A stretch of DNA of 64,000 bases from Escherichia coli (GTDB lineage Bacteria > Pseudomonadota > Gammaproteobacteria > Enterobacterales > Enterobacteriaceae): assembly GCF_036507355.1 (NCBI RefSeq), contig NZ_AP027877.1, one strand, 5' to 3'. The position numbers and the translations under genes are program-made. Below the pieces are notes generated by a model that did no database searches, was not told the origin of the DNA, and saw only the letters and a program-made list of their open reading frames with translations. Of this stretch, positions 5,132 to 22,537 are shown in pieces. How positions within the stretch are numbered: the stretch's first letter is position 1; each line of letters begins with the position of its first letter.

Positions 5132-6127
5132 TCACTGCCATTTACGGTGATACGCGCCAAGGGTGGTTTGCGTGCCTTCGGACATCGACCCGAGCGTCTC
5201 CATCCACGCGCTTTGCGGTACGAAGTTTTGCGGATCGGCCTTACAACGGTCGATAGCCTGACGCCAGACTTTCGCCACCTGGCTGACATACGCCGGGCTA
5301 CGCTGGCGGCCTTCAATTTTCACCGAAGCGATATTCGACGCCATTAACTCCGGCAGCAGTTCCAGGGTATTGAGACTGGTGGGTTCTTCCAGCGCGTGAT
5401 AGCGCTCGCCGTCCACCAGATAACGCCCTTTACATAGCGTCGGATAACCTGCGTTTTCGCCGTCCTGATAACGGTCGATCAGCACTTCGTTCAGGCGGGA
5501 TTCCAGCCCCTGCGGCGTTTGTTGCCAGCGCACGAAACGGGCCGGAGAACACGCGCCTACGGTGTTGGGCGACTCACCCGTCAGATACGACGACAGATAG
5601 CAACGACCTTCCGACATAATGCACAGGCTGCCGAAAGCAAAGACTTCCAGTGGTACAGGTGTGACCCGTGCCAGTTGTTTCACCTGATGAATCGACAACA
5701 CGCGCGGCAGCACCACGCGAGCAACGTCAAAATGGCGATGATAAAAGTTAATCGCCTCTTCATTGGTCGCCGAAGCCTGCACTGACACATGACGCTCAAT
5801 ATGCGGGTAACGCTCGGCGGCGTACTCCAGCATGGCGAGGTCGGCGAGGATCAGCGCGTCGGCACCCAGCTGCGCCGCCATATCCACGGCGCGCTGCCAA
5901 CGGGCGTAACCGTCCGGATGCGCAAAAGTGTTAATCGCGATGTGAAGTTTGCGGCGATGTTGATGGACAAAACTCACCGCTTCCTGCAATTTTTTCTCGG
6001 TAAAGTTAAGGCCGGCGAAGTGACGGGCATTGGTATCATCTTTTAGCCCGATATAAACAGCATCTGCGCCGTTTTCGATGGCCGCCTTAAGCGCCGGGAG
6101 ATTTCCGGCAGGGCAGAGCAGCTCCAT
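5132..6127 (-). CDS. ubiU: U32-family protein UbiU (YhbU), O2-independent ubiquinone biosynthesis
   Basis: ORF 5132..6154; start placed at MELLCPAGNLPALK (331 aa). Confidence 0.85.
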   Translation of the reverse strand: MELLCPAGNLPALKAAIENGADAVYIGLKDDTNARHFAGLNFTEKKLQEAVSFVHQHRRKLHIAINTFAHPDGYARWQRAVDMAAQLGADALILADLAMLEYAAERYPHIERHVSVQASATNEEAINFYHRHFDVARVVLPRVLSIHQVKQLARVTPVPLEVFAFGSLCIMSEGRCYLSSYLTGESPNTVGACSPARFVRWQQTPQGLESRLNEVLIDRYQDGENAGYPTLCKGRYLVDGERYHALEEPTSLNTLELLPELMASNIASVKIEGRQRSPAYVSQVAKVWRQAIDRCKADPQNFVPQSAWMETLGSMSEGTQTTLGAYHRKWQ

Positions 6128-6335
6128 AATTTTTCCTGAAGGTTGCGCTATCAAAACGCAAAAATGTTAACGAACTGGGATTTTAGTTAACCTTGCTGCG
6201 ACAATTTTTGATTTAAGGCAGTTAAAGTTGTATTGGTGGTAGCAGCAATTTCATATGGAATTGTTGATTTATACCGCTATGTTATTTTTCTGATATGGCA
6301 AAATAGGATGATTGTTGAAACAGGGAGTAAAACTC

Positions 6336-6860
6336 GTGTTGGATAAACTGCGTTCCCGTATTGTGCATTTGGGGCCATCTCTGTTGAGTGTACCGGTAAA
6401 ACTGACGCCATTTGCGCTAAAACGCCAGGTTCTTGAGCAGGTCTTAAGCTGGCAATTCCGTCAGGCGCTGGATGATGGCGAGCTGGAGTTTCTTGAAGGT
6501 CGCTGGTTAAGTATTCATGTGCGTGATATTAACCTGCAATGGTTTACCTCGGTGGTGAATGGCAAACTGGTGGTCAGCCAGAACGCGCAAGCTGATGTGA
6601 GTTTTAGTGCCGACGCCAGCGATCTGCTGATGATTGCGGCGCGTAAACAAGATCCGGATACGCTCTTCTTCCAGCGTCGGCTGGTGATTGAAGGCGATAC
6701 GGAGCTGGGGCTGTATGTGAAAAACCTGATGGACGCCATTGAACTGGAGCAAATGCCGAAAGCCTTACGCATGATGCTGCTGCAACTGGCGGATTTTGTT
6801 GAGGCGGGAATGAAAACCGCGCCTGAAACCAAACAGACATCGGTAGGTGAACCATGCTAA
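6336..6860 (+). CDS. ubiT: SCP2-domain ubiquinone biosynthesis accessory factor UbiT (YhbT)
   Basis: ORF frame 6312..6860; probable GTG start at 6336 preceded by agggag RBS (6322..6327), giving MLDKLRSRIVHLG. Confidence 0.8.
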   Translation: MLDKLRSRIVHLGPSLLSVPVKLTPFALKRQVLEQVLSWQFRQALDDGELEFLEGRWLSIHVRDINLQWFTSVVNGKLVVSQNAQADVSFSADASDLLMIAARKQDPDTLFFQRRLVIEGDTELGLYVKNLMDAIELEQMPKALRMMLLQLADFVEAGMKTAPETKQTSVGEPC

Positions 6861-7357
6861 TTCGAGTAGAAATTCCCATTGATGCGCCGGGTATTGATGC
6901 CCTGCTGCGTCGTTCATTCGAAAGCGATGCGGAAGCGAAGCTGGTTCACGATCTGCGTGAAGATGGCTTTCTGACGCTGGGGCTGGTGGCGACAGATGAC
7001 GAAGGTCAGGTCATTGGCTATGTGGCATTTAGTCCGGTTGATGTGCAGGGCGAAGACCTGCAATGGGTCGGCATGGCACCGTTGGCGGTTGATGAAAAGT
7101 ACCGTGGACAGGGGCTGGCACGCCAACTGGTCTATGAAGGACTCGATTCGCTTAATGAGTTCGGCTATGCCGCAGTGGTGACGCTGGGCGATCCGGCGCT
7201 GTACAGTCGTTTCGGCTTTGAACTGGCGGCGCATCACGATCTGCGTTGCCGCTGGCCGGGCACTGAAAGCGCCTTCCAGGTACATCGTTTAGCGGATGAC
7301 GCGCTGAATGGCGTAACCGGTCTGGTTGAGTATCACGAGCATTTCAATCGCTTTTAA
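6854..7357 (+). CDS. yhbS: GNAT-family N-acetyltransferase YhbS
   Basis: 167-aa ORF; recognised as YhbS; start overlaps the ubiT stop (operon-like). Confidence 0.8.
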
Positions 7358-7646
7358 TCTCCGGGGTTTGCAGACTGCTTAACAGCTCTGAAAACCCTGC
7401 GCCTTCCGCTACCAGACGCTCTTTTTGCAGTTTGGTCAGTTGCTTAACGCGATATTCCGCCCGTAACGCCAGCGAACGATCGCCCACTGGCGCAGAAAAC
7501 GCCAGCGTCAGTTCTCCTTTCCCGCGCAGTGCTTTCGCCCCTTTGCCGCTTTGGTGCTGCTGATAGCGGCGTTCGACATCCGTGGTGATCCCGGTATAAA
7601 GCTTATTGTCGGCGGTACGGATCAAGTAAAGAAACCAGGGTGTCAT
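7344..7646 (-). CDS. yhbQ: GIY-YIG nuclease-family protein YhbQ
   Basis: 100-aa ORF; recognised as YhbQ. Confidence 0.8.
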
Positions 7647-7696
7647 CGTCTGCGTCGCATGTTAAGGTCAGGCCCACAGTATAAAAGAGAACAGCA

Positions 7697-8119
7697 ATGG
7701 AAACACTCACCGCCATCAGCCGTTGGCTGGCAAAACAACATGTTGTCACCTGGTGTGTGCAGCAGGAAGGGGAACTCTGGTGCGCCAATGCCTTTTATCT
7801 GTTTGATGTGCAGAAAGTCGCCTTCTACATTTTGACGGAAGAAAAAACGCGCCACGCGCAGATGAGTGGGCCGCAGGCTGCGGTTGCCGGAACGGTAAAC
7901 GGTCAGCCGAAAACGGTAGCGTTAATTCGCGGCGTGCAGTTTAAAGGTGAGATCCGCAGGCTGGAAGGTGAGGAAAGCGACCTCGCGCGCAAGGCGTACA
8001 ATCGTCGCTTTCCGGTTGCCAGAATGCTGTCGGCCCCGGTGTGGGAAATCCGGCTCGATGAAATCAAATTCACCGACAACACGCTGGGCTTTGGTAAAAA
8101 AATGATTTGGCTACGCGGC

Positions 8120-8140
<21 letters not shown>
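7697..8140 (+). CDS. yhbP: UPF0306 / PNPOx-like protein YhbP
   Basis: 147-aa ORF; synteny. Confidence 0.8.
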
Positions 8141-9401
<1,261 letters not shown>

Positions 9402-9473
9402 TTATTCCCAAGAATTGATAGTGAGCGTAATATTCACGCGCTCAATTATCATGACTTATTCCTGGGGAATGCT

Positions 9474-10514
9474 ATGACTGGTCAGTCTTCATCTCAGGCG
9501 GCAACGCCCGTTCAGTGGTGGAAACCTGCGCTTTTCTTTCTCGTTGTCATTGCCGGTCTCTGGTATGTGAAATGGCAACCTTACTACGGCAAAGCGTTTA
9601 CTGCTGCCGAAACCCACAGTATCGGTAAATCTATCCTTGCGCAGGCGGATGCTAATCCGTGGCAGGCGGCGTTGGATTACGCGATGATCTATTTCCTCGC
9701 GGTATGGAAAGCGGCGGTGCTGGGGGTGATCCTCGGTTCGTTGATTCAGGTGCTGATCCCGCGTGACTGGTTGTTGCGTACGCTTGGGCAATCGCGCTTT
9801 CGCGGCACGCTGCTGGGAACGCTGTTTTCGCTGCCGGGCATGATGTGTACCTGCTGTGCGGCTCCGGTCGCGGCGGGAATGCGTCGCCAACAGGTGTCGA
9901 TGGGCGGTGCGCTGGCATTCTGGATGGGCAATCCGTTGTTAAACCCGGCGACGCTGGTGTTTATGGGGTTCGTCCTCGGCTGGGGTTTTGCGGCGATTCG
10001 TCTGGTGGCGGGGCTGATGATGGTGTTGCTGATTGCGACGCTGGTGCAAAAATGGGTGCGTGAAACACCGCAAACGCAAGCATCGGTCGAAATTGACATA
10101 CCGGAAGCACAGGGCGGATTTTTTAGCCGCTGGGGCAGGGCGCTATGGACGCTTTTCTGGAGTACGATCCCGGTTTACATCCTTGCAGTACTGGTGTTGG
10201 GTGCCGCTCGCGTCTGGTTATTCCCCCATGCCGATGGTGCTGTCGATAACAGCCTGATGTGGGTGGTGGCGATGGCGGTGGCAGGATGCTTGTTTGTCAT
10301 TCCCACGGCAGCAGAAATTCCGATTGTACAAACGATGATGCTGGCAGGTATGGGAACTGCTCCGGCGCTGGCATTGTTGATGACGCTCCCGGCGGTGAGT
10401 TTGCCGTCACTGATTATGCTGCGCAAAGCGTTCCCGGTGAAAGCCTTATGGCTGACAGGGGCGATGGTGGCAGTGTCTGGTGTGATTGTCGGCGGGCTGG
10501 CGCTGTTATTCTGA
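9474..10514 (+). CDS. yraQ: Permease-family inner membrane protein YraQ
   Basis: 346-aa hydrophobic ORF; synteny. Confidence 0.8.
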   Translation: MTGQSSSQAATPVQWWKPALFFLVVIAGLWYVKWQPYYGKAFTAAETHSIGKSILAQADANPWQAALDYAMIYFLAVWKAAVLGVILGSLIQVLIPRDWLLRTLGQSRFRGTLLGTLFSLPGMMCTCCAAPVAAGMRRQQVSMGGALAFWMGNPLLNPATLVFMGFVLGWGFAAIRLVAGLMMVLLIATLVQKWVRETPQTQASVEIDIPEAQGGFFSRWGRALWTLFWSTIPVYILAVLVLGAARVWLFPHADGAVDNSLMWVVAMAVAGCLFVIPTAAEIPIVQTMMLAGMGTAPALALLMTLPAVSLPSLIMLRKAFPVKALWLTGAMVAVSGVIVGGLALLF

Positions 10515-10526
10515 TTTGAGGGAAAA

Positions 10527-10615
10527 CATGTCGGATGCGGCGTAAACGCCTAATCCGACCTACGGTTTGCATCGTTGTAGGCCTGATAAGACGCGGCAAG
10601 CGTCGCATCAGGCAT
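10527..10615. repeat. REP pair (BIME) between convergent yraQ and dolP
   Basis: ggatgcggcgtaaacgcctaatccgacctac and inverted gtaggcctgataagacgcggcaagcgtcgcatcaggc. Confidence 0.7.
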
Positions 10616-10627
10616 TACAAGGGGCTG

Positions 10628-11203
10628 CTATTTAATAAACGTAAACGCCGTAGTTACCCGCTTCACGCCGCTCACCCGGCTGGCAATATCTGCCGCCGCT
10701 TTCGCTTCACGTTCAGTCACCAGCCCCATCAGGAACACTTCACCGTTTTCGGTGGTCACTTTCACGTTGGACGATTTCACCAGGTCGCTGGTTAAGAGCT
10801 GAGAACGTACTTTGGTGGTGATCCACGTATCGTTAGACGCTTCGCCCAGACCAATCGGCTGGCCCTGACGAATCTCGTTATACACTTCGTTGGCACCGTC
10901 TACGCCCATAGCAATCTGTTTGGCGCGAGCCGAAAGTTCAGCGTTTGGTGACTGCCCAACCAGCAGCACTTTGCCCTGATAGGCCGTTACATTAATGCGC
11001 GCTTCTTTCTTAATCTGTTCGTCTTTCGACAATGCGCTGTTCACGCGCACTTCCAGGGTACCATCGTCCACCTGGGTGCCGACACTGCGTGGGTCAGTTG
11101 CGGCTTTGGTACCCACAGCAGCGGTACCCACTACGGCAGCGGCAACACAACCTTGCAACAGCAGCGCGGAAATAAGGACTGCGATTGGCGATAATGCCTT
11201 CAT
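10628..11203 (-). CDS. dolP: BON-domain outer-membrane lipoprotein DolP (YraP)
   Basis: 191-aa ORF with lipoprotein signal (LLQGC); recognised as YraP. Confidence 0.88.
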   Translation of the reverse strand: MKALSPIAVLISALLLQGCVAAAVVGTAAVGTKAATDPRSVGTQVDDGTLEVRVNSALSKDEQIKKEARINVTAYQGKVLLVGQSPNAELSARAKQIAMGVDGANEVYNEIRQGQPIGLGEASNDTWITTKVRSQLLTSDLVKSSNVKVTTENGEVFLMGLVTEREAKAAADIASRVSGVKRVTTAFTFIK

Positions 11204-11212
11204 GTATTCTCC

Positions 11213-11803
11213 TTAATCATCCTGGTGAGGGAAAAGCGTGTTATCGATCAGATCGCACAGGCAATTTACCGTCAGCATATGCATTTCCTGAATGCGAGCA
11301 CTGCGATGCGAAGGGATGCGGATCTCCACATCCTGTGGCCCTAACAAACCTGCAAGTTCACCGCCGTCATAGCCGGTCAATGCCACAATGGTCATATCAC
11401 GCGTAACGGCAGCTTCTACCGCTTTTACAATATCGCGGCTGTTGCCACGGGTGGAAATGGCTAACAATACATCTCCCGCATGACCCAGCGCCCGCACCTG
11501 TTTTGCATACACTTCATCATGTAAGCGATCGTTGGCAATCGCCGTTAAGACAACATTATCAGTATTTAGTGCAATGGCAGGTAAGCTGGGCCGCTCCGTT
11601 TCGAAACGGTTGATCATGCTGGCAGCAAAATGCTGTGCATTGGCAGCGGAAGTTCCATTACCACAACAGAGGATTTTGTTGCCATTGAGCAGAGACTGAA
11701 CCAGCGTCATGGCCGCACGGGAGATGGCATCCGGAAGCGCCTCTGCCGCCGCAATTTGAGTTTGAATGCTTTCAGTGAAGCAAGCTTTAATTCTTTCTTG
11801 CAC
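11213..11803 (-). CDS. diaA: DnaA initiator-associating protein DiaA (SIS domain)
   Basis: 196-aa ORF; recognised as DiaA. Confidence 0.88.
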
Positions 11804-11822
11804 GCTAATCCTTAAACCTTAA

Positions 11823-12218
11823 TTATGAGTGGTCATTAAAGGCATCCTTAATCCACTCAACCTCATTCCCGGTGAAGGCTACCACATCGAACCGGCAATC
11901 CACAGTATCAAAACTCCCATTATGACGCGCGAGCCACAAGCGGGCAGTCTGTAATAATTTGTGTTGTTTGCTGCGGGTCACACTGGCTGCCGCGCCGCCA
12001 TAAAGCGCAGAACGGCGGTAACGCACCTCGACAAAAACGGTGGTCCGGCCTTCACGCATTATCAGATCGATCTCGCCGCCACGCTCGTTCACGTTAGCGG
12101 CGACAAATCGCAGTCCTTTGCCTTCCAGCCAGCGACGCGCTTGTACTTCCCACGCATCGCCGGTCTGTTTGGTGGTTAACTGGCGGGGACTACCTGACCT
12201 TGTTGGTACTGTAGCCAT
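11823..12218 (-). CDS. yraN: UPF0102 protein YraN
   Basis: 131-aa ORF; synteny; overlaps the lpoA 3' end. Confidence 0.8.
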
Positions 12219-14212
12219 GATAACTTCCTGTTAATCACGCAATCCGGGTTAGCCGTCAGGCTTCCGGTATTACCGTTGATTTCAAAACCCTGAACCTGGC
12301 GCATTTGTGAGAAATGATTTGCCAGCGACCAGGCATCGACGCCCATCGCATACATGCGAGCCAGTGAATAATCGTTATTCACCGCGCTGAGTGCCTGCTG
12401 CATTAACGGTAGATTACCGCCTGCCAGCATCGGGGTTTCGCTGTACTGCAAGCCTTCCATCTCCAGACGGAAATCCGGGCCAGCGGTCCCTTGCGCACTG
12501 CGGGAGCTGGCGTACAGCGTTGCACCGCTCTGGCTACCGTTACGCATGGCGATCATCGGTTTAATAAAAGCGATTTCACCCGGCGTTGCCACAATGTACA
12601 CCGCATCGACACGACCGCCATTATTGGTGAACTGGTCATCGGTTGGCGTGGTTTGCAGCGTGGGATTGTTGGTCGTCATGCCGGAGTCGGTTGTCGCTCT
12701 GAGAGTAATCGGGCTACCCGTTAAAGCAATACCAGAACCGCCGTTAACACCCGCGCGTAATTCGCTGGTGGAACCAAATTTTTGTTGCAGAACGGTGCCG
12801 CCGCCCAGTTTCTGCCACTCTTGCGCAAACGCATTGGCTACGCGATCGCCCAATGAACTGCGTGGGATCAGCACCAGCGGCGCTTGTTTACCCTGGTCAC
12901 GAATATGACGCGCTGCATCGCGCGCTTCGTCTTCCGGTGAAAGCGCGAAGTAACAAATATTGACGCGATTTTCGATATTCTCCGGCTGGTTCAGTGCCAG
13001 TACGTTCAGCGGAGTGTTGCTCTTCAGCAACTCTTCAACGTTATTTTTCAGCAACGGACCGACCACAATACTCGCGCCATCCTGCTGAACCTGGCTTAAG
13101 ATCTGACTAAGTGGTTGTGATGAGGTATCGTAGATTTTCAGCTCTGCGGATGGATTTGCGGGTGCGCTTACCGCTGCGGTGCTTGTCGCCGGGGCGCTTA
13201 CAGGCACCGGCTGGGCTGCAGGCTGTTCACCGGTCAGATCGCTAACCGAGGCTTGTGCCGGGCTGGCAACGCCATCCACGGTTTGCGGTTGAGGTTGTTC
13301 TGCTACGTCTGCGGCAGGTGCGGCAGCTACCTGAGCTGCCACTGGCTGAGTGCCGATATTTTTCGCCGCTTCAAAGCCTTGCTGAATAGTGCGACCAAAT
13401 ACCGCTGCCTGGCCATTCAGTGGCAACAGCAGGGCGATTTTGTTGGTCGAGGCTGGTTTAAACGCTTTTACGTTAACCAACTGCGTTGGCAGCATTTTCG
13501 CGCCCGGGTTGTTCGGATAACGTTTCTGCCAGTCGGCGATCCCGGCTTTCATCATGTCGGGATCGTTACGGTTATCAAACCAGACGCGCTGCAGATCCAG
13601 CCAGCCTTGCAGAATATTTTCGTCGGCGTTGATCACCAGCGTATTCGCCTGTTCCTGAGTCATGGAGGAGAGCGCCTGCCAGGTGGCATCAATATTCTGC
13701 TGTTTTTCTTTCGCGCCAAGCAGCGGTTCCTGAGCAATTAACGCGCGCAGTAAATCAATGGAAGGACGCCCCTGGCTGGCATCGATTTTTGCCTGCCAGT
13801 AACGGGCTTGCTGGTTTTGTTCTAAATCGGCGGGTGTAATTTTCGCCAGCAAGTTTTGCGCGCCAGCAAAATCTTTCTGCGCCAGTTTAATCTCTACCGC
13901 CAGCAGTGTTTTCTCGCGACGCTGAGAATCGTTCAGTTCTTGCGGTAGTTGGTTAAACAACTCAACCGCCTGCCCGGTTTTACCTTCTTTCACCAGTGCA
14001 CGAATGGCGAGTAATTGCCAGTTGATCCTGGTATCATCAGAGCTTTGCTGCATCTGCTGAAGATAAAAGGCAGAATCAGCCTGCGCCGTGCCCTGCATAT
14101 AAGCAGTGGACTGATCGGGAGTATGGGTGCCACAACCGGCGAAAATCAGGGCTGCCAGAACAACAGGCAGACAACGCGCGGCTTTCAAACGAGAAAATGT
14201 TGAGGGTACCAT
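12176..14212 (-). CDS. lpoA: Penicillin-binding protein activator LpoA (YraM)
   Basis: ORF 12176..14242; start placed at [10 protein letters not shown]; lipobox AGC; Ala/Pro/Gln-rich linker. Confidence 0.88.
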
Positions 14213-14276
14213 AATGTATCCAGTGATATTTTTTTTACGCAATGCTCAATATTAAATCGGCAATACGGACGACACA

Positions 14277-15140
14277 ATGAAACAACACCAATCGGCGGAT
14301 AATTCTCAGGGCCAGCTTTACATTGTACCGACGCCAATCGGCAATCTGGCGGATATCACCCAGCGTGCGTTAGAGGTATTACAGGCCGTTGATCTGATTG
14401 CCGCCGAGGATACTCGTCACACCGGTTTATTGCTGCAACATTTTGGGATTAATGCCCGGTTGTTTGCGCTGCACGACCATAACGAACAACAAAAAGCCGA
14501 AACGCTGCTGGCGAAGCTGCAAGAGGGGCAAAACATTGCGCTGGTTTCCGATGCCGGAACGCCGCTAATTAACGATCCTGGCTACCATCTGGTGCGTACC
14601 TGCCGTGAAGCGGGGATTCGTGTGGTGCCGCTACCCGGACCGTGTGCTGCTATCACTGCGTTAAGCGCCGCGGGTTTACCCTCTGACCGTTTCTGTTACG
14701 AAGGCTTTTTACCTGCCAAATCAAAAGGCCGCCGTGATGCGCTAAAAGCCATTGAAGCGGAGCCACGCACGCTGATTTTTTATGAATCTACCCACCGTCT
14801 GTTAGATAGCCTGGAAGATATCGTTGCGGTATTAGGCGAATCCCGCTACGTGGTTCTGGCGCGTGAGCTGACCAAAACCTGGGAAACCATTCACGGCGCG
14901 CCCGTTGGCGAGCTGCTGGCGTGGGTAAAAGAAGATGAAAACCGTCGCAAAGGCGAAATGGTGCTGATTGTCGAAGGCCATAAAGCGCAGGAAGATGACC
15001 TGCCTGCTGATGCCCTGCGCACGCTGGCTCTGTTGCAGGCAGAACTGCCGCTGAAAAAAGCGGCGGCGCTGGCAGCAGAAATTCACGGCGTGAAGAAAAA
15101 TGCGCTGTATAAGTATGCGCTGGAGCAGCAGGGAGAGTGA
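14277..15140 (+). CDS. rsmI: 16S rRNA 2'-O-ribose C1402 methyltransferase RsmI (YraL)
   Basis: 287-aa ORF; recognised as RsmI; divergent from lpoA. Confidence 0.88.
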
Positions 15141-15151
15141 TATCTCTCCGT

Positions 15152-15177
15152 GGCCCCGTTTGAAGAACCCAGGGGCC
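15152..15177. terminator. Hairpin between convergent rsmI and the antitoxin gene
   Basis: Stem ggcccc/ggggcc with a 14-nt loop, lying in the 42-bp gap between the two stop codons. Confidence 0.4.
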
Positions 15178-15182
15178 GCCTG

Positions 15183-15485
15183 CTAAACAATTAGTCTTTT
15201 TAGTGAGCCGAACAGATCGATGCCGATAGCATTTGCATAGCTAAAAACAACATCTAATGTTGGTGAACTTTCTCCTTTTTCAAATTTACTCACCGCTTGT
15301 CGGGTAACACCAAGTTGCTTCGCCACGGCAGTTTGGCTCAGATTGAGGGCTTTGCGTTTTTCCACGAGTTGGGAAAGAACCGCTTTGCGTTGTACAACAA
15401 CATCAAGAGCATTAGCGGTTGCTTCGTCCTTAAGTAATTCTGTTTTCACGTCTTCCCAGTGATGTAACTCGTTATTTTTCTTCAT
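15183..15485 (-). CDS. XRE-family helix-turn-helix protein, putative HigA-like antitoxin
   Basis: 100-aa ORF with HTH signature LSQTAVAKQLGVTRQAVSKFEKGE; 23 bp downstream of the toxin-like gene on the same strand. Confidence 0.7.
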   Translation of the reverse strand: MKKNNELHHWEDVKTELLKDEATANALDVVVQRKAVLSQLVEKRKALNLSQTAVAKQLGVTRQAVSKFEKGESSPTLDVVFSYANAIGIDLFGSLKRLIV

Positions 15486-15508
15486 TTCTATTTCTCCTGG
15501 AGGCTTGC

Positions 15509-15868
15509 TTAGTTTGTCGAAAGTAAGGCCTTATAACGTGCTAAACCTAACTCGATGTTGGCTTTAGGCGTTTTGTTCGTTTTTTTAGCAAAGATATGTG
15601 TGATGACCCATAGCCCTTGATGAAAGTGAAAATAAAAACCCCTTAACCAATGGCTCTGACTATGTGTTTTAATTTCATACATATCCCCTTGAACTTTTTC
15701 GGTATTCACCAGGGAAGAGCAGGGACCTAACTCTTCGAAATCGTCAATAGCAGCAATGAATTCCGCTCGATCGATTGCACTAAGATCAAACAATTCCTTT
15801 CTGGCCACACTTAACAGCATGACTGGAAAATTTTTATCACGTTTTTTGTTAGTCTGATTTTTCACCAT
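15509..15868 (-). CDS. Gp49-like RelE/ParE-superfamily (HigB-like) toxin
   Basis: C-terminal segment FYFHFHQGLWVITHIFAKKTNKTPKANIELGLARY resembles the conserved Gp49-like toxin core as recalled. Start is ambiguous: the ORF extends to 15961 (150 aa); I favour the M32 start at 15868 (119 aa). Confidence 0.6.
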   Translation of the reverse strand: MVKNQTNKKRDKNFPVMLLSVARKELFDLSAIDRAEFIAAIDDFEELGPCSSLVNTEKVQGDMYEIKTHSQSHWLRGFYFHFHQGLWVITHIFAKKTNKTPKANIELGLARYKALLSTN

Positions 15869-15991
15869 CTTTTTGTCAACCTTTAGGTTTACATTGTGAT
15901 GACATAATAACGGAGGACGTTCATACTGAACCGGAACGAAGTGCTCAAAACTCATGAGCACTTTTCTTATTTTTCCGGGCTAAGGGGGATG

Positions 15992-16759
15992 TTAACGACG
16001 ACACATCTCATCAATCACGCATGTGAAATGGTTATGCAGCCATAAAAACGAAGCCGGGATAGCGGTGGAGACTTTAGCCGTGAGAAAACGTTCTGTCGCA
16101 TCCTGCTTTCCTTCGCCAGTCACCAGTAACAAAACTTCGCGGGCAGTGAGAATATCTTTCAAACCTAAGGTGATCCCCCGGGTAACGGGGCGACCTGCGG
16201 TTTTTAACATCTCATGTTGCTGTGTTCTGGCATCAAGTTGGCTGATATGGCAGGCCGGTTGCAGGCTTTCTCCCGGTTCGTTCAGCCCCAGATGACCGTT
16301 TTTCCCCAGCCCAAGCATGCACAAATCGATACCACCTTTGAGCGCAATCAGGTTCGTTACCCGCTCACACTCTGTCTCGTTAATATCTTCAGAGCGAAAG
16401 CTGATGAACTGGTCTTCACGTAGCCCCAGCGGCTGTACGATATGTTGTTGAAGGAAGGTTTCGCAAGTGCCGGGCAGAGTTAATGGCAGATCCACCCATT
16501 CATCGAGTTTGACGACGGTGAGCTGGCTGACATCAACGTGCTGCTGGTGGATTTTTTCTACCAGATAATGATACGTCAGTAATGGCGTGGCTCCGGTCGC
16601 CAGGCAAATCACGGCATCCGGTTTGCTACGGATCACGGCCAATAAATATTCGCTGGCACGTTCACTTAACGCCGTATAGTTTTCAACTTGCTGAAGGGTT
16701 TGCACAGGATGAAATTCCTTAAGTAAAGGGGCACCGCCAGACGCAGTGCCTCGTTCCAT
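15992..16759 (-). CDS. agaI: Putative galactosamine-6-phosphate deaminase/isomerase AgaI
   Basis: 255-aa ORF; NagB-like; last gene of the agaS-kbaY-agaBCDI operon. Confidence 0.85.
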   Translation of the reverse strand: MERGTASGGAPLLKEFHPVQTLQQVENYTALSERASEYLLAVIRSKPDAVICLATGATPLLTYHYLVEKIHQQHVDVSQLTVVKLDEWVDLPLTLPGTCETFLQQHIVQPLGLREDQFISFRSEDINETECERVTNLIALKGGIDLCMLGLGKNGHLGLNEPGESLQPACHISQLDARTQQHEMLKTAGRPVTRGITLGLKDILTAREVLLLVTGEGKQDATERFLTAKVSTAIPASFLWLHNHFTCVIDEMCRR

Positions 16760-17551
16760 TTACAAAATGCCGAATGCGGAACAAACAATAGAGAGCACAA
16801 AAGTCACGCCGATTAACAGCACCGGATGCGCTTTTTTCACCCGCAGGAAGTAATACATCAGCAGGGTGTAGGCCATCGGTAAAATGTTCGGGAAGACTTT
16901 ATCGAAGAAATCCTGTTGCAGCGCGACGCTGTGGGTACTGTCGATGGCAAACGATGTCACCACGTTAATATGCACATACGAAGCGATCAGCCCGCCGATT
17001 ACCGTGATCCCGAGGATGGTTGCCGAACGGGCAATCATCTGCGAGTTCTCTCGCACTTTATCGATCGCCTTCACGCCGACTGAATAACCAACGTGGGTCC
17101 AGCTGACGCGCAGGAAAAAGATAAGCAGGTAAACGGCGAAAAATAGAATCGGCCCCAGCAGGTTTCCCTGGCTGGCAAATGATGAGCAAATTCCCGCCAT
17201 AATCGGCAACAAAGTAAACCAGAAAATCGCATCGCCAATCCCGGCGATTGGGCCAAACAGTGCCACTTTGAGGCCTTTAATGGTGTCGCGGTTTTCTCCT
17301 TTTTCTTCCATCGAAATTAATAACCCCATCAGGAATCCGACCAGATTCGGGTGGGTATTAATAAATTCGAGGTTATCTTTCATCGCTGCGCTTAGGCCCG
17401 GTTTGTCATCCTTATAAATCTTTTTTAGGATCGGCAACATCGCCCAGGTAAAACCGCCCGCTTGCATCCTTTCGTAGTTAAAGCTCGCTTGCAGCAGCGA
17501 CGAACGAAAGCCCAGACGGGTGATATCTTTTTTACTGATTTCAGATCCCAT
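16760..17551 (-). CDS. agaD: PTS galactosamine-specific EIID component AgaD
   Basis: ORF 16760..17698; start placed at MGSEISKKDITRLGF (263 aa). Confidence 0.85.
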   Translation of the reverse strand: MGSEISKKDITRLGFRSSLLQASFNYERMQAGGFTWAMLPILKKIYKDDKPGLSAAMKDNLEFINTHPNLVGFLMGLLISMEEKGENRDTIKGLKVALFGPIAGIGDAIFWFTLLPIMAGICSSFASQGNLLGPILFFAVYLLIFFLRVSWTHVGYSVGVKAIDKVRENSQMIARSATILGITVIGGLIASYVHINVVTSFAIDSTHSVALQQDFFDKVFPNILPMAYTLLMYYFLRVKKAHPVLLIGVTFVLSIVCSAFGIL

Positions 17552-18344
17552 TGCTGTAGTCCTCTTCTTCATTTTTACTGGCAACGGGCTGCGGTTGCGC
17601 TTGCTGCCGGGATTTCGCATTGAAAAACTCATACACCGCAAAGCCTGCGCCCAGTACGGCAACCGGCAACAGGTTGCTGACCTGGATGTAGCAAACAAAC
17701 AGGAAACCGGCGATCAGGTAAGGGATATATTGCGCTTTGAACATTACGCGCAGCAGCAAGCCAAAACCAACGGCAGGCAGAATACCGCCAGCCACTTCAA
17801 AGCCGTGGGTCAACCAGGCGGGCATCGCTTTCACCAGCGCCTGCATCGCCCCTTGTGCCAGGTAAGTACAGAGGAAAGCAATCACCGCATATGCTGAAGC
17901 GACGATGAGCATCGTTGTCCAGTTAAGCCGGGAAAATGCTGCCGTATCCGCCTCTTTCGCGCATTTATCGGCTTTGGTCATAAATAATGAGAAAGCGGAA
18001 TAGAAGAACAGAATGACGTACTGCATTAACAAACTAAACGGTAGGCCAAGACCAATTGCCGTTTTGGCATCAACGCCCGTAGACCATGCAATGACGGTGG
18101 TCATCAGACCCGCCATAATAGGGTTGGGCGGCTGAACACCACCTGCAGGGGTTAATCCGGCGAAAGCCAACTCTGTCAGACCACCGGTAATTAAGCCAGT
18201 CTGAATATCACCGAGAATAGCGCCAGTTAGGGTACAAACGATTATCGGGCGGAATAAAAATAAGGCTTCCAGCCAAAAATCAATCCCCAGAACGAAAACT
18301 AACGCCGCCAGGGATAATCCCTGAAGTAGGGTTATTTCATGCAT
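17541..18344 (-). CDS. agaC: PTS galactosamine-specific EIIC component AgaC
   Basis: 267-aa hydrophobic ORF; mannose-family IIC. Confidence 0.85.
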   Translation of the reverse strand: MHEITLLQGLSLAALVFVLGIDFWLEALFLFRPIIVCTLTGAILGDIQTGLITGGLTELAFAGLTPAGGVQPPNPIMAGLMTTVIAWSTGVDAKTAIGLGLPFSLLMQYVILFFYSAFSLFMTKADKCAKEADTAAFSRLNWTTMLIVASAYAVIAFLCTYLAQGAMQALVKAMPAWLTHGFEVAGGILPAVGFGLLLRVMFKAQYIPYLIAGFLFVCYIQVSNLLPVAVLGAGFAVYEFFNAKSRQQAQPQPVASKNEEEDYSNGI

Positions 18345-18382
18345 TTTTATTACCTCAAACCAATATTAAGGCGATTTTAGAT

Positions 18383-18859
18383 TTAGTCAGGGATTTGTTC
18401 TTTTTGATCGCCAGGGACGTCCTGAATGAAAACATTCACGCCACGTTGTTTAATAAAACGTAAGTCCGTGAGATCCTGGTCATCGACATAAACTTTACTG
18501 CTGATTTGCTTTTTCCCTTCCGAGAAATGCATATTGCCGACGTTGACCTCTTTCAGGTCAATGCCACCTTCTACCAATTTACGTACCGTTTGTGGCGTAC
18601 GGCAAATCAGGAAGATCTTCTGATGCGGTGCAGCTTTGCCGATGACGTTAATGGTTTTTTCGATAGTAAAGAAACGAATGCCAAAGCCGTAGGTTTCTGC
18701 GGTAATACCCATTAATTTCTGTTGAATATCATCGTTAGCGACAACATCATCCACGACTACCAGCAGATTCGCACCGATGGTGGATGTCCAGGTCACGCCA
18801 ACCTGACCGTGAACCAGACGGTTATCAATACGGGTTAAGAGAATATTTGGACTGCTCAT
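18383..18859 (-). CDS. agaB: PTS galactosamine-specific EIIB component AgaB
   Basis: 158-aa ORF; mannose-family IIB N-terminus NILLTRIDNRLVHGQ. Confidence 0.85.
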   Translation of the reverse strand: MSSPNILLTRIDNRLVHGQVGVTWTSTIGANLLVVVDDVVANDDIQQKLMGITAETYGFGIRFFTIEKTINVIGKAAPHQKIFLICRTPQTVRKLVEGGIDLKEVNVGNMHFSEGKKQISSKVYVDDQDLTDLRFIKQRGVNVFIQDVPGDQKEQIPD

Positions 18860-19025
18860 TGTGTAATCCTCACCATAAAGTTGAATAATATAATTTTTTT
18901 AAATATATTATTGTTGCGATATTGTACTGATGTATTTATTAAGGTTTAGTCATCTCCTTTTCCATTAAGGCACTCCCCGATATTAATCGGGAAGTACATT
19001 GGGATAAATCATAAAAAACTAATGA

Positions 19026-19898
<873 letters not shown>

Positions 19899-21053
19899 TT
19901 ATGCCTGCCACGGATGAATGATTACGCCTTGCACCACGCGGTTAACGGTGCCACTGGCTGATGGGGTATCCGGCGTATTGCCCATGTGCAGCGACTGCAT
20001 CAGTGCAAACGTCTGGGCGTACATCAGGAAGCAAAATGCCTGCTCAACGTCGATAAAGTGACGTGACGGTGGCAGGATGATATGTGGACCGGCAGCGACG
20101 ATGTCGCTGCTTTCCGCGGCGATGGCGATTACACGCATTGCCTGGTTGTCACGGCGAAGTTCAGCCAGCAGATCAAGATCATACTGACGGGTGTAAGGGT
20201 GGCTGGAGACAAATACCACCACCAGCGTTTCGTCATCGACCAGCGATTTTGGTCCATGACGGAATCCGGTTGGAGAATCATAAAAGGCCGCCAGTTTACC
20301 CGCCGTCAGTTCCAGCACTTTCAGCGCCGACTCGCGTGCTGCGCCCTGTAAGCCACCGCTGCCGAGATAAACGATCCGTTTCCACGGTGCGTAACCAAAC
20401 ACACCTTCGCTGAAATCGCCCAGTGAGGTCAGTATCGCCTGGCAACGATCCGCCACGTCGCGGAAGGTTTGGCTGTTGATCGTCTCAGGTGCGAAAACCG
20501 CGAGGCAGCTGGCCATCATGGTGGTAATGCTGCTGGTCATCGCAAAGCCGCGATCGTGCGTTTCTGCGGGCATCAGCAGGGCAAACGCGTTATCGCTGTT
20601 GATCGCGTTTTGGTAAAGAGCGCCCGCTTCGTTGCAGGTGATCGGCAGGTGATAGCATTCCGGTACAAATTGATTTGCCAGTTCCACGGCTGCGACGCTT
20701 TCCGGGCTGTTGCCGGATCGACCGAAGGAGATCAACAGCAGCGGATGGGCTGGGTTCAGGTAGTCCATCGGATTAGTGACCAGATCGGTGGTCGGTACGG
20801 CGCTGAAGTTTTTACCGGTATGGCTGGCGAGCCACGGCGCGATGATGTCACCGATAAATGCTGAGGTTCCGGCTCCGGTCAGGATGATCCGCAGATTCTC
20901 TTTGCGCAGTAACGGTTCAAGGAAGTTATTAAGCGCGGAACGTAGCGCGTCGATGTTGGTGAGTGAACGGATCCATGCGCGAGGCTGTTGGCGGATCTCT
21001 TCTTCAGTCCATGTACCGGTTGCGGCGGCAGCAGGGGTGTAATTTTCTGGCAT
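19899..21053 (-). CDS. agaS: SIS-domain sugar isomerase/deaminase AgaS
   Basis: 384-aa ORF; recognised as AgaS. Confidence 0.85.
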   Translation of the reverse strand: MPENYTPAAAATGTWTEEEIRQQPRAWIRSLTNIDALRSALNNFLEPLLRKENLRIILTGAGTSAFIGDIIAPWLASHTGKNFSAVPTTDLVTNPMDYLNPAHPLLLISFGRSGNSPESVAAVELANQFVPECYHLPITCNEAGALYQNAINSDNAFALLMPAETHDRGFAMTSSITTMMASCLAVFAPETINSQTFRDVADRCQAILTSLGDFSEGVFGYAPWKRIVYLGSGGLQGAARESALKVLELTAGKLAAFYDSPTGFRHGPKSLVDDETLVVVFVSSHPYTRQYDLDLLAELRRDNQAMRVIAIAAESSDIVAAGPHIILPPSRHFIDVEQAFCFLMYAQTFALMQSLHMGNTPDTPSASGTVNRVVQGVIIHPWQA

Positions 21054-21084
21054 AACTCAATCCTTAGTCTGATGAACTTGACGT

Positions 21085-21260
21085 CGGGCGTTGTCGCTTT
21101 CGCTTACCTTTCGTTTCATTTCACTTGGTGATGTCTTTCGTTGATTAAAATCTATAGAAAAGAAACCGAAAGTTCAATGGAGAAAAAGGAAATAAAACGA
21201 AATCTGTGATCATTGAAAGAAAAGACAAGGGAAGATTAAAGAATTGCGTAATGACGTCGC
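21085..21260 (-). promoter_or_regulatory. agaS promoter region with AgaR operator-like CTTTCG/CGAAAG repeats
   Basis: Clustered motifs ctttcgcttacctttcgtttcatttcac, gtctttcgttga, aaccgaaagttc and aaaacgaaatc upstream of agaS. Confidence 0.45.
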
Positions 21261-21273
21261 TATGTTCACCGAT

Positions 21274-21327
21274 TGCCGGATGCGGCGTATCGTAGGTCGG
21301 ATAAGACGCGTTAGCGTCGCATCCGAC
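21274..21327. repeat. REP element between agaA and agaS
   Basis: gccggatgcggcgtatcgtaggtcggataagacgcgttagcgtcgcatccgaca. Confidence 0.7.
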
Positions 21328-21403
21328 ACCGCTGCACAGATCAAAACGAAAGAAAAAGAAAGGCCTTACGGGAGAAGTGAAGGCCCAATAATGGAGCAAA
21401 CCA

Positions 21404-22537
21404 TCAAAACGAAGCTAATTGACCCTGAATCCAGATTTGTTGCACATGCAGCCCGCTATCCAGCGCAACGACGCTGGCGCGTTTGCCCGGTTTAAGCGAT
21501 CCCAGAACACCATCAACACCCAGCATTCGCGCCGGATGCAGCGATGCCATATGAATGGCTTCCGCAGGCGTTACGCCCGTCAACTCGACCATATTGCGCA
21601 CTGCCGCATCAACAGACAGCGTACTGCCCGCCAGCCCACCGGACGCGGTACGGACAACGCCACCGTGCATCTGCACTTCTTCGCCACATAACGTATAGCG
21701 ACCATCCGGCATCCCGGCTGCCTGCATCGCGTCGGTGATCAGCACGATTCTCTCTTTCGCACAGCAACAACACAGCGACATCGCCGCCGGATGCACATGA
21801 TGACCATCGGCTATCAGTTCCAGCCAGGCGCGCTTGTCCGTTAATCCCGCGCCAACCATTCCCGGTTCGCGGTGATGTAAACCTGTCATCCCGTTATAGC
21901 AATGCACCAGGCCGTCGGCACCAGCATCAAACGCGGCGCGAGTTTGTTGCCAGGTCGCCGCGCTATGCCCCAGCATCACTCGTACGTTTTGCTGTTTAAG
22001 ATGGCGTATGGCCTGCAATGCCCCCTCTTTTTCCGGTGCCAGCGCTACCACGCGTAAGGTGTGCTGAGAAACGGCAATCAATTGATCCAGCTCGGCAATT
22101 TCCAGCTCGCGGAACAGCTCTGGGGGATGCGCGCCTTTATTCTGCGGCGTGAAGTACGGTCCTTCGAGATAACTCCCCAGCACTTGCGCACCAGGTCCGC
22201 CGCGTTGGCAACGTTGAGCAATACGTTTCAGCGCCGCATGAATGGTATTAAGCGGCGCGGTTACGGTGGTCGGTAACCAACTGCCGACACCTTCGCGTGC
22301 CTTGTGCATTGCCAGCTTGTCGAGTACATCCGGCGCGTCATCCATTACATCAACGCCCGCACCACCGTGTACATGGGTGTCGATGTAAGCAGGGCAGAGC
22401 AGTTCCGCATCGCGTTCAGTCACGCCCACTGGAATCGGTTCGATTGCTGCGATGACACCGTCAGCAATACGCAACTGATGGTCATCGAGCCATCCCTCTT
22501 CAGTCAGCAGCCTTCTGGCGCGCAGAACGTGTGTCAT
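21404..22537 (-). CDS. agaA: N-acetylgalactosamine-6-phosphate deacetylase AgaA, full length
   Basis: ORF 21404..22558; start placed at MTHVLRAR (377 aa); metal-dependent amidohydrolase. K-12 has this gene truncated. Confidence 0.85.
   Translation of the reverse strand: MTHVLRARRLLTEEGWLDDHQLRIADGVIAAIEPIPVGVTERDAELLCPAYIDTHVHGGAGVDVMDDAPDVLDKLAMHKAREGVGSWLPTTVTAPLNTIHAALKRIAQRCQRGGPGAQVLGSYLEGPYFTPQNKGAHPPELFRELEIAELDQLIAVSQHTLRVVALAPEKEGALQAIRHLKQQNVRVMLGHSAATWQQTRAAFDAGADGLVHCYNGMTGLHHREPGMVGAGLTDKRAWLELIADGHHVHPAAMSLCCCCAKERIVLITDAMQAAGMPDGRYTLCGEEVQMHGGVVRTASGGLAGSTLSVDAAVRNMVELTGVTPAEAIHMASLHPARMLGVDGVLGSLKPGKRASVVALDSGLHVQQIWIQGQLASF

Follow-up and report, generated by a model that had tools for sequence, protein, structure and literature searches.

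A candidate HigBA-class (Gp49/XRE) toxin-antitoxin operon between rsmI and agaI in Escherichia coli

Introduction

Toxins of the Gp49-like family (Pfam PF05973) are classified as ribosome-dependent and mRNA-degrading, with the toxin gene placed first in the operon (PMC11980606), and a long C-terminal helix is typical of them (PMC9098466). The HigBA system of Streptococcus pneumoniae (6af3/6af4) is a toxin-first operon encoding a Gp49-like toxin with such a helix, and its antitoxin, which consists of an N-terminal toxin-binding part and a C-terminal helix-turn-helix (HTH), binds palindromes in its own promoter (PMC7984235). HigB1 of Mycobacterium tuberculosis (Rv1955; 7awk, 7nbu), the toxin of the TAC system, also has the Gp49-like fold. 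It is the only close relative of the toxin described here with a ribosome-bound structure and mapped cleavage, at CCA codons between C and A (PMC9098466).

We analyzed a 64-kb window, which is the whole stretch of E. coli DNA under study. A sequence-only reading of this window had pointed to a Gp49/HigB-like toxin gene and an XRE-HTH antitoxin gene between rsmI and agaI. Like the S. pneumoniae system, this pair is toxin-first, and its toxin is Gp49-like with a long C-terminal helix. We consider it quite likely that the pair is a working HigBA-class (Gp49/XRE) type II toxin-antitoxin operon. This reading is based on the protein family, fold, conserved functional residues, gene order, purifying selection, and a conserved palindrome.

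Results

The gene pair between rsmI and agaI

The genes and the segment that contains them are as follows.

14277-15140, + strand: rsmI, one flank of the pair
15141-15991, no strand: the whole variable segment, standing in place of the 49-bp rsmI-agaI spacer of 'empty' genomes, e.g. ST131
15183-15485, - strand: XRE protein gene (HTH_3), 100 aa
15509-15868, - strand: toxin gene, 119 aa, Gp49-like (PF05973), RelE/ParE superfamily, HigB type
15992-16759, - strand: agaI, the other flank of the pair

Both small genes were found on the - strand at the positions given by the sequence-only reading. They are co-oriented with the toxin gene upstream, and 23 nt separate the toxin stop (15509) from the antitoxin ATG (15485). 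The corresponding spacing in relatives is a 2-nt gap or a 14-nt overlap. The pair is AT-rich: GC content is 0.38 and 0.42 in its two genes and 0.51 in the window as a whole. The same reading had noted the absence of an integrase, a tRNA, and flanking repeats, and this holds for the window: the tRNA search found no tRNA in 10000-22000, the ORF list contains no integrase-sized ORF in the rsmI-agaI interval, and no meaningful direct repeats flank the pair. A search of 14800-16400 against Rfam returned no RNA family.

Start codon of the toxin gene

The toxin ORF has a common end at 15509 and possible starts at 15961 (GTG), 15955, 15868, and 15820. RefSeq PGAP uses ATG 15955 for a 148-aa protein, and both 119-aa and 148-aa versions of the gene are present in GenBank. 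We aligned 19 homologues of 55-99% identity. The homologues from outside E. coli start at a Met matching 15868 (some gene calls place the start at Met 15820 instead), and near the N-terminus the homologues have in common a run of basic residues and, directly after it, F/Y-P-V/I. Five codons before the ATG equivalent to 15868, Pseudocitrobacter has a stop codon. These starts and the stop codon rule out both the 150-aa (GTG 15961) and the 148-aa models. Furthermore, the DNA encoding the additional 29 residues of the 148-aa model holds a stable hairpin (15931-15978) and the palindrome described below.

The start at Met 15820 (103 aa), which some gene callers choose for relatives, is less likely because the upstream FPV/YPV motif and the basic stretch are conserved as protein. 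Of the seven nucleotide differences from the Pseudocitrobacter MAG locus (L004) in the 16 codons between 15868 and 15820, five are at third positions, and Yersinia and Pseudocitrobacter have no Met at the position equivalent to 15820. Taken together, the homologue starts, the Pseudocitrobacter stop codon, and the hairpin and palindrome in the extension support ATG 15868 as the start of a 119-aa gene at 15509-15868. Of the two ends offered by the sequence-only reading, 15868 is thus retained and GTG 15961 is dropped. With this start, 123 bp (15869-15991) separate the gene from agaI; the "about 30 bp" of that reading applies to the spurious long ORF only.

Family, fold, and residues of the two proteins

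The sequence-only reading had proposed a Pfam search of both proteins, and the search returned the families it had named. The toxin matched Gp49 (PF05973) with an E-value of 1.6e-20 over model positions 1-90 of 90, and the antitoxin matched HTH_3 with an E-value of 6.8e-16 (HTH_37, only 1e-4). In the NCBIfam search, no model reached significance for the toxin. The antitoxin scored 20.7 bits with the HigA equivalog TIGR02607, whose cut-off is 47.7, and is therefore outside that HigA subfamily.

As a single sequence, the toxin found M. tuberculosis HigB1 in the PDB (E 7e-4), and a profile of 66 homologues found S. pneumoniae HigB (6af3_A, E 6e-19) and M. tuberculosis HigB1 (E 6e-13). The antitoxin matched S. 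pneumoniae HigA (6af3_B) over its full length, with E-values of 1.3e-8 for the single sequence and 1.1e-11 for the profile, followed by M. tuberculosis HigA3. The best solved matches of the two proteins are two chains of one complex, S. pneumoniae HigBA 6af3. The AlphaFold model of the toxin (pLDDT 89.3) has two N-terminal helices, a four-stranded sheet (strands within residues 56-95), and a long C-terminal helix (residues 102-118), i.e. the RelE-type fold with the helix expected of a Gp49-like toxin. Foldseek placed 6af4, 7awk, and 7nbu at the top (TM 0.64-0.67); V. cholerae HigB2 (5jaa) and RelE proteins came next.

Residues with known functional roles are largely kept. Glu65, Lys67, Arg76, Phe93, Lys95, Asn98, and Lys99 of the toxin align with Glu66, Arg68, Arg77, Phe93, Lys95, Gln98, and Lys99 of HigB1, and the first five align with Glu66, Arg68, Arg73, Phe90, and Lys92 of S. 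pneumoniae HigB. Mutating most of these residues in HigB1 or S. pneumoniae HigB lowers toxicity or RNase activity (PMC9098466, PMC7984235). Among the 66 toxin homologues, Glu65, Arg76, and Lys95 are at least 90% conserved. Asn73 of HigB1 aligns with Ser72 of the toxin, and Lys58 of HigB1 is aligned one position off. The subfamily motif in the toxin is HWLRGFYF...HIFAKKTNKTPK.

The C-terminal tails differ among the aligned homologues. In the E. coli allele, a TAA stop codon stands where the cryptic-Escherichia allele has AAA, and the last seven residues are lost (119 vs 126 aa). From this comparison, the E. coli allele looks derived relative to the cryptic-Escherichia allele.

The main rival to a working operon is that the pair keeps the HigBA architecture around an attenuated or inactive toxin, which would make it an autoregulated HTH regulator with a harmless partner, domesticated or decaying. 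When expressed, the Gp49-like HigB2 and HigB3 of M. tuberculosis were non-toxic, with almost no cleavage (PMC9098466), so belonging to the family is no guarantee of an active toxin. The shorter C-terminus of the E. coli allele, the missing Shine-Dalgarno sequence at the toxin start codon, and a frameshift near the toxin N-terminus in a related contig (L017) point in the same direction. However, the dN/dS of the toxin against the Pseudocitrobacter copy is 0.04, a constraint as strong as that on rsmI (0.035), and the antitoxin is equally constrained (0.055). Both genes are under purifying selection. Moreover, every residue aligned with the mutationally validated set is kept, and because the tails vary among homologues, the truncation is probably tolerated. 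We regard an attenuated toxin as distinctly unlikely, and the sequence comparisons suggest that the module is well preserved and probably functional.

Regulatory elements

The following elements were mapped around the two genes.

15150-15179, no strand: GC-rich hairpin separating the convergent rsmI and antitoxin genes; + strand fold of -17 kcal/mol, z -2.25
15494-15498, - strand: Shine-Dalgarno sequence AGGAG, 8 nt before the antitoxin ATG, read from the sequence
15875-15892, no strand: 18-bp imperfect palindrome GTAAACC-TAAA-GGTTGAC (7-4-7), candidate operator for the antitoxin dimer
15893-15909, - strand: -10-like hexamers CACAAT (15893-15898) and TATTAT (15904-15909), directly upstream of the palindrome, from a low-threshold scan
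15931-15978, no strand: stable hairpin directly downstream of the agaI stop codon, -19.6 kcal/mol, z -3.6, a stability reached by 0 of 200 shuffles

By inspection of the sequence, the toxin ATG has no Shine-Dalgarno sequence comparable to that of the antitoxin. The palindrome GTAAACCTAAAGGTTGAC (15892-15875) lies 6 nt upstream of the toxin ATG. Its pattern, GT[ACT]AAC-N6-GTT[GTA]AC, occurs once in the window, where about 0.015 chance matches per 64 kb are expected as calculated from the pattern. It also occurs once in each fetched toxin-antitoxin locus (L001, L004-L008, and L011-L022), always upstream of the toxin gene. These loci include Pseudocitrobacter, Yersinia pestis, Y. alsatica, Klebsiella sp., Sodalis sp., Kluyvera, and cryptic Escherichia. 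The pattern is missing from the pair-less loci of K-12, ST131, and EC25 (L003, L009, and L010). The motif was defined on three loci, and L006 and L008 are independent confirmations. In these two loci, about 85 bp before the gene, a perfect or near-perfect palindrome overlaps a good -35/-10 pair. Autorepression at palindromes was shown for other HigA proteins (PMC7984235), and by analogy we infer that the antitoxin dimer would autorepress the operon at this site.

The sequence-only reading had placed the promoter necessarily inside the 3' end of agaI. This necessity disappears with the start at 15868, which leaves 123 intergenic bp containing the conserved palindrome and the -10-like hexamers. 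At matching positions, TATTAT/TATCCT and CAAAAT/TAAAAT/CACAAT are present in the cryptic Escherichia, Kluyvera, and Pseudocitrobacter-like loci, and the hexamers at 15893-15909 are a candidate promoter core. The low-threshold scan found no convincing -35 near them, and a standard promoter scan (9 of 12 matches) found no promoter on the - strand. TTGACA (15874-15879) was rejected as the -35 of the operon in E. coli-type loci because the transcript would begin within the coding region. In L006 and L008, the equivalent half-site does overlap a good -35.

The hairpin behind agaI scores as an intrinsic terminator on the + strand only, where the T-run lies. Since the - strand has no U-tract, read-through from the aga operon into the pair is possible. 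The hairpin at 15150-15179 is kept in Pseudocitrobacter and in the MBL/LysR state described below, and is missing from the 'empty' ST131 junction.

States of the junction in E. coli

We surveyed 5426 complete E. coli genomes and observed at least four states of the rsmI-agaI junction.

yraHIJK: 3523 genomes, ~65%
'Empty', with rsmI and agaI adjacent and a 49-bp spacer (e.g. ST131): about 1800 genomes, ~1/3, inferred from about 1800 genomes matching the agaI end and nothing beyond
MBL-fold hydrolase and LysR regulator: 64 genomes, 1.2%
Toxin-antitoxin pair: 12 genomes, 0.2%, always at this junction

The yraHIJK operon, which the sequence-only reading had named for this position in K-12, was seen between agaI and rsmI of MG1655. 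The BLAST breakpoints of the window are 15141 and 15991 against ST131, 15206 and 15870 against MB53, and 15133 and 16035 against K-12. The MBL/LysR state matches the window except at 15207-15869. Both ends of the module survive in it, with the 122 bp preceding the toxin ATG and the final 24 bp of the antitoxin ORF, so that the palindrome persists there as an orphan (L002). From these retained module ends, the MBL/LysR state evidently descends from an ancestor with the toxin-antitoxin pair.

Both genes are among the feature names under the match in all 12 complete carriers, and in the five carrier annotation tables examined, both are intact with no pseudogene flag. The toxin-antitoxin core of the carriers differs by 0-3 of 663 bp, whereas lpoA, rsmI, and agaD differ by 1-2%.

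Relatives and history of the module

The order aga-TA-rsmI-lpoA was found in a Pseudocitrobacter-like contig (L014, which shares 95% identity with the Pseudocitrobacter MAG L004), an enterobacterial contig (L017), and unclassified (cryptic) Escherichia (L018), and, with agaI missing, in a Kluyvera MAG (L021). Compared with L014, the pair has a proportion of synonymous differences of 0.65-0.76, and agaD and agaI have 0.74-0.75. At synonymous sites the pair has thus diverged about as far as the neighboring aga genes. The arrangement is therefore old, and the family-level synteny suggests that the module has long resided at the aga-rsmI junction of several enterobacterial genera.

The history within E. 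coli is different. The cryptic-Escherichia copy differs from that of the window in 9 of 800 bp (1.1%), against 6-8% in the flanks. Near-identical copies between diverged flanks indicate recent lateral exchange through the homologous flanks rather than a long-standing polymorphism. In E. coli, the pair is a rare allele, and this pattern indicates that it was recently exchanged with cryptic Escherichia lineages by homologous recombination in the flanking genes. The "ancestral alternative locus state" of the sequence-only reading stands in part: the gene order in other genera, the aga-like synonymous divergence, and the remnant in the MBL/LysR state agree with it, but the 12 carriers among 5426 genomes, with near-identical copies in divergent flanks, speak for recent exchange.

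The pair is also found in unrelated contexts in Yersinia (homologue L005, 62% identical), Klebsiella sp., and Sodalis. These contexts indicate that the pair and the candidate operator also move as a unit. The two-gene order is kept in more than seven taxa and three different chromosomal contexts. A species-level scan found only five loci. It drew on a single genome for each species and used two strict peptide patterns, which makes absence elsewhere weak evidence.

Some of these observations could fit a leftover of a prophage or island, in which a phage Gp49 protein and a Cro/CI-like repressor form no self-contained toxin-antitoxin module. The Pfam family is named for a phage protein, the module is AT-rich, and the two proteins match PHROGs families (phrog_2523, E 3e-13; phrog_1373, E 1e-14). 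In the Pseudocitrobacter MAG L004, a duplication of the rsmI 3' end flanks the module on both sides, which is a trace of insertion. However, when 50,697 phage records were searched in translation, the only matches were two weak ones from Listeria (36% identity), and no plasmid relative exceeds 40% amino-acid identity. No phage, integrase, or tRNA genes are near the pair in any locus examined, and the two genes occur by themselves in at least three unrelated settings on the chromosome. The window itself lacks the marks of a prophage or integrative element, and the flanking repeat is confined to L004. We judge such a leftover to be very improbable.

Discussion

Proposed mechanism

In the preferred reading of a working HigBA-class operon, the 119-aa toxin would most likely occupy the ribosomal A site and cut the mRNA codon there, by analogy with M. 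tuberculosis HigB1. The 100-aa antitoxin most likely neutralizes the toxin via its N-terminal segment. An antitoxin dimer would place its XRE helix-turn-helix on the 18-bp palindrome that separates the -10 region from the toxin start, thereby repressing the operon. The strong ribosome-binding site of the antitoxin and the weak one of the toxin may keep the antitoxin in excess, and the toxin would be released if the module were lost or shut off. In this scheme, toxicity, neutralization, operator binding, and the trigger are inferred.

The same molecular mechanism could have been selected for abortive-infection phage defence rather than for locus stabilization or selfish persistence. RelE/ParE-superfamily modules are discussed as defence toxins (PMC11980606). 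In PADLOC, the toxin has a weak match to NsnC (E 1.5e-5), and the antitoxin HTH resembles the HTH domains of RmrA and CapH. However, no PADLOC system model fits, and the matches are 50-residue stretches or generic HTH. Other defence genes are absent nearby in the ORF list of the window, and the sequence features favor neither role. We regard a defence role as rather unlikely.

A broader and tentative reading, possible if somewhat doubtful, is that the module is a long-lived selfish resident of the junction, beside the 3' end of rsmI and downstream of the aga genes, in at least four enterobacterial genera. It would be moved between Escherichia lineages by recombination in the housekeeping genes at its flanks, with no mobility gene involved, and be overwritten in E. 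coli by yraHIJK or MBL-LysR cargo. The orphan operator and promoter left after overwriting may then affect the incoming genes. If true, this would be a clean natural case of toxin-antitoxin persistence through addiction at a recombination hot spot.

Novelty and significance

Both genes are already generically annotated in RefSeq, and the pair, rare in E. coli, is ordinary in type. In the literature, no paper names the RefSeq accessions of the pair, and no member of this toxin subfamily appears to have been experimentally tested. The pair adds an uncharacterized enterobacterial subfamily to the Gp49/HigB toxins, which is of modest importance. The clearly defined candidate operator makes autoregulation easy to test. 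The toxin start is corrected where RefSeq is inconsistent, with 119-aa and 148-aa versions both in circulation. The junction, with its traces of replacement and of exchange with cryptic Escherichia, is a possible lineage marker or a small model of toxin-antitoxin persistence and loss.

Comparison with known systems

The HigBA pair of E. coli K-12 (YgjN-YgjM) is, like the present pair, toxin-first with an HTH antitoxin and a RelE-superfamily mRNA interferase. K-12 HigB belongs to a different Pfam family, PF09907 (PMC11980606), and is absent from the sequence and fold matches of the toxin. V. cholerae HigB2-HigA2 (5jaa, 8a0x) is a toxin-first pair of a ribosome-dependent RelE-superfamily mRNase and an HTH antitoxin. 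Its fold match to the window toxin has an E-value of 8e-4 with a poorer fit (TM 0.49), and the name HigB2 was placed under PF06296, not PF05973, in a 2025 classification (PMC11980606).

The Gp49/HTH pairs of Tn3-family transposons and the tad-ata-type plasmid modules (PMC7157771; PMC11980606) share the toxin family, a HigA-superfamily HTH antitoxin, and the toxin-first order. Those modules are located on transposons or plasmids beside resolution sites and are paired with HTH_37. The window pair, by contrast, lies on the chromosome without genes for mobility; its antitoxin is matched best by HTH_3, and its plasmid relatives all fall below 40% identity.

S. pneumoniae HigBA is the best solved match of both proteins, but the two toxins share only 17-21% identity in structural alignments, and the window toxin differs by a basic N-terminal tail, KNQTNKKRDK. 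The operator consensus of S. pneumoniae HigBA, xaxxt...axxaa, is unrelated to the GTAAACC-N4-GGTTGAC candidate here. M. tuberculosis HigB1 is 25-26% identical to the window toxin (TM 0.64-0.67). The TAC system is tripartite and requires a SecB-like chaperone, whereas the window pair has no third gene. HigB1 and the window toxin have in common F93-x-K95-x-x-(Q/N)98-K99-T-P-K, with identical numbering.

Junctions at the toxin start and in agaI

The locus state with an MBL-fold hydrolase and a LysR gene occurs in 64 complete genomes, and its replaced segment starts exactly at the toxin ATG. Left over in this state are an orphan candidate operator palindrome with its −10-like boxes and, from the antitoxin gene, the final 8 codons. 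The corresponding segments, together with those of the other irregular loci, are as follows.

Features of the variant loci
L002 (E. coli MB53) 5768-8000 and 8001-8122: MBL/LysR replacement and retained upstream part; the retained parts lie at 15183-15206 and 15870-15991 in the window
L004 (Pseudocitrobacter MAG) 1945-2008 and 2861-2939: rsmI 3' end present as a direct repeat on both sides of the toxin-antitoxin module
L012 (E. coli 14EC033, pair carrier) 8442-10022: IS1A interrupting agaC
L009 (E. coli EC25) 5152-6079: IS1-associated deletion

The 122-bp toxin upstream region (15870-15991 in the window) exists as two alleles about 10% apart, one in the window and the other in MB53 and in the pair-carrying locus L011, which has the MB53-like allele. 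Both are found with a near-identical toxin-antitoxin core. Alleles this different next to nearly the same core imply a recombination breakpoint at the candidate operator or the toxin start codon.

Within agaI, a patch of about 700 bp (16000-16750) shows 5.5-6.8% divergence, locally about 10%, from all other E. coli compared, and its best identity among 5267 complete genomes with a match is at most 94.3%. From the cryptic-Escherichia locus L018, too, it diverges, by 6.4%. The exact protein of the window agaI (WP_338388046.1) is recorded from one 4.64-Mb contig only. The patch looks like an imported allele that ends directly at the toxin-antitoxin module.

Irregular loci and the yraHIJK state

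The rsmI 3' repeat in the Pseudocitrobacter MAG has two matching stretches, one of 47 nt (85% identity) and one of 34 nt (88%), and a DeoR-type regulator and a dehydrogenase are in place of the aga genes. The sister genome (L014) has the usual agaI-TA-rsmI order. The repeat is a rearrangement or insertion footprint at the rsmI 3' end.

In the enterobacterial contig L017 (3974-4010), the reading frame of the toxin N-terminus is broken at a stretch of A's, and the gene was therefore called from an internal Met (110 aa). Either a genuine frameshift or a misassembly could account for this.

IS1 insertions remodel the neighbourhood in 14EC033 and EC25. In the EC25 deletion, rsmI-lpoA is lost and agaI directly adjoins the deaD region.

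The yraHIJK state of K-12 departs from the window within both flanking genes, at 15134 and 16035. The RsmI end is two codons different (286 aa in K-12 versus 287 aa in the window). The AgaI C-terminus also differs, with 251 aa in K-12 and 255 aa in the window, the latter end being common to about 1870 genomes.
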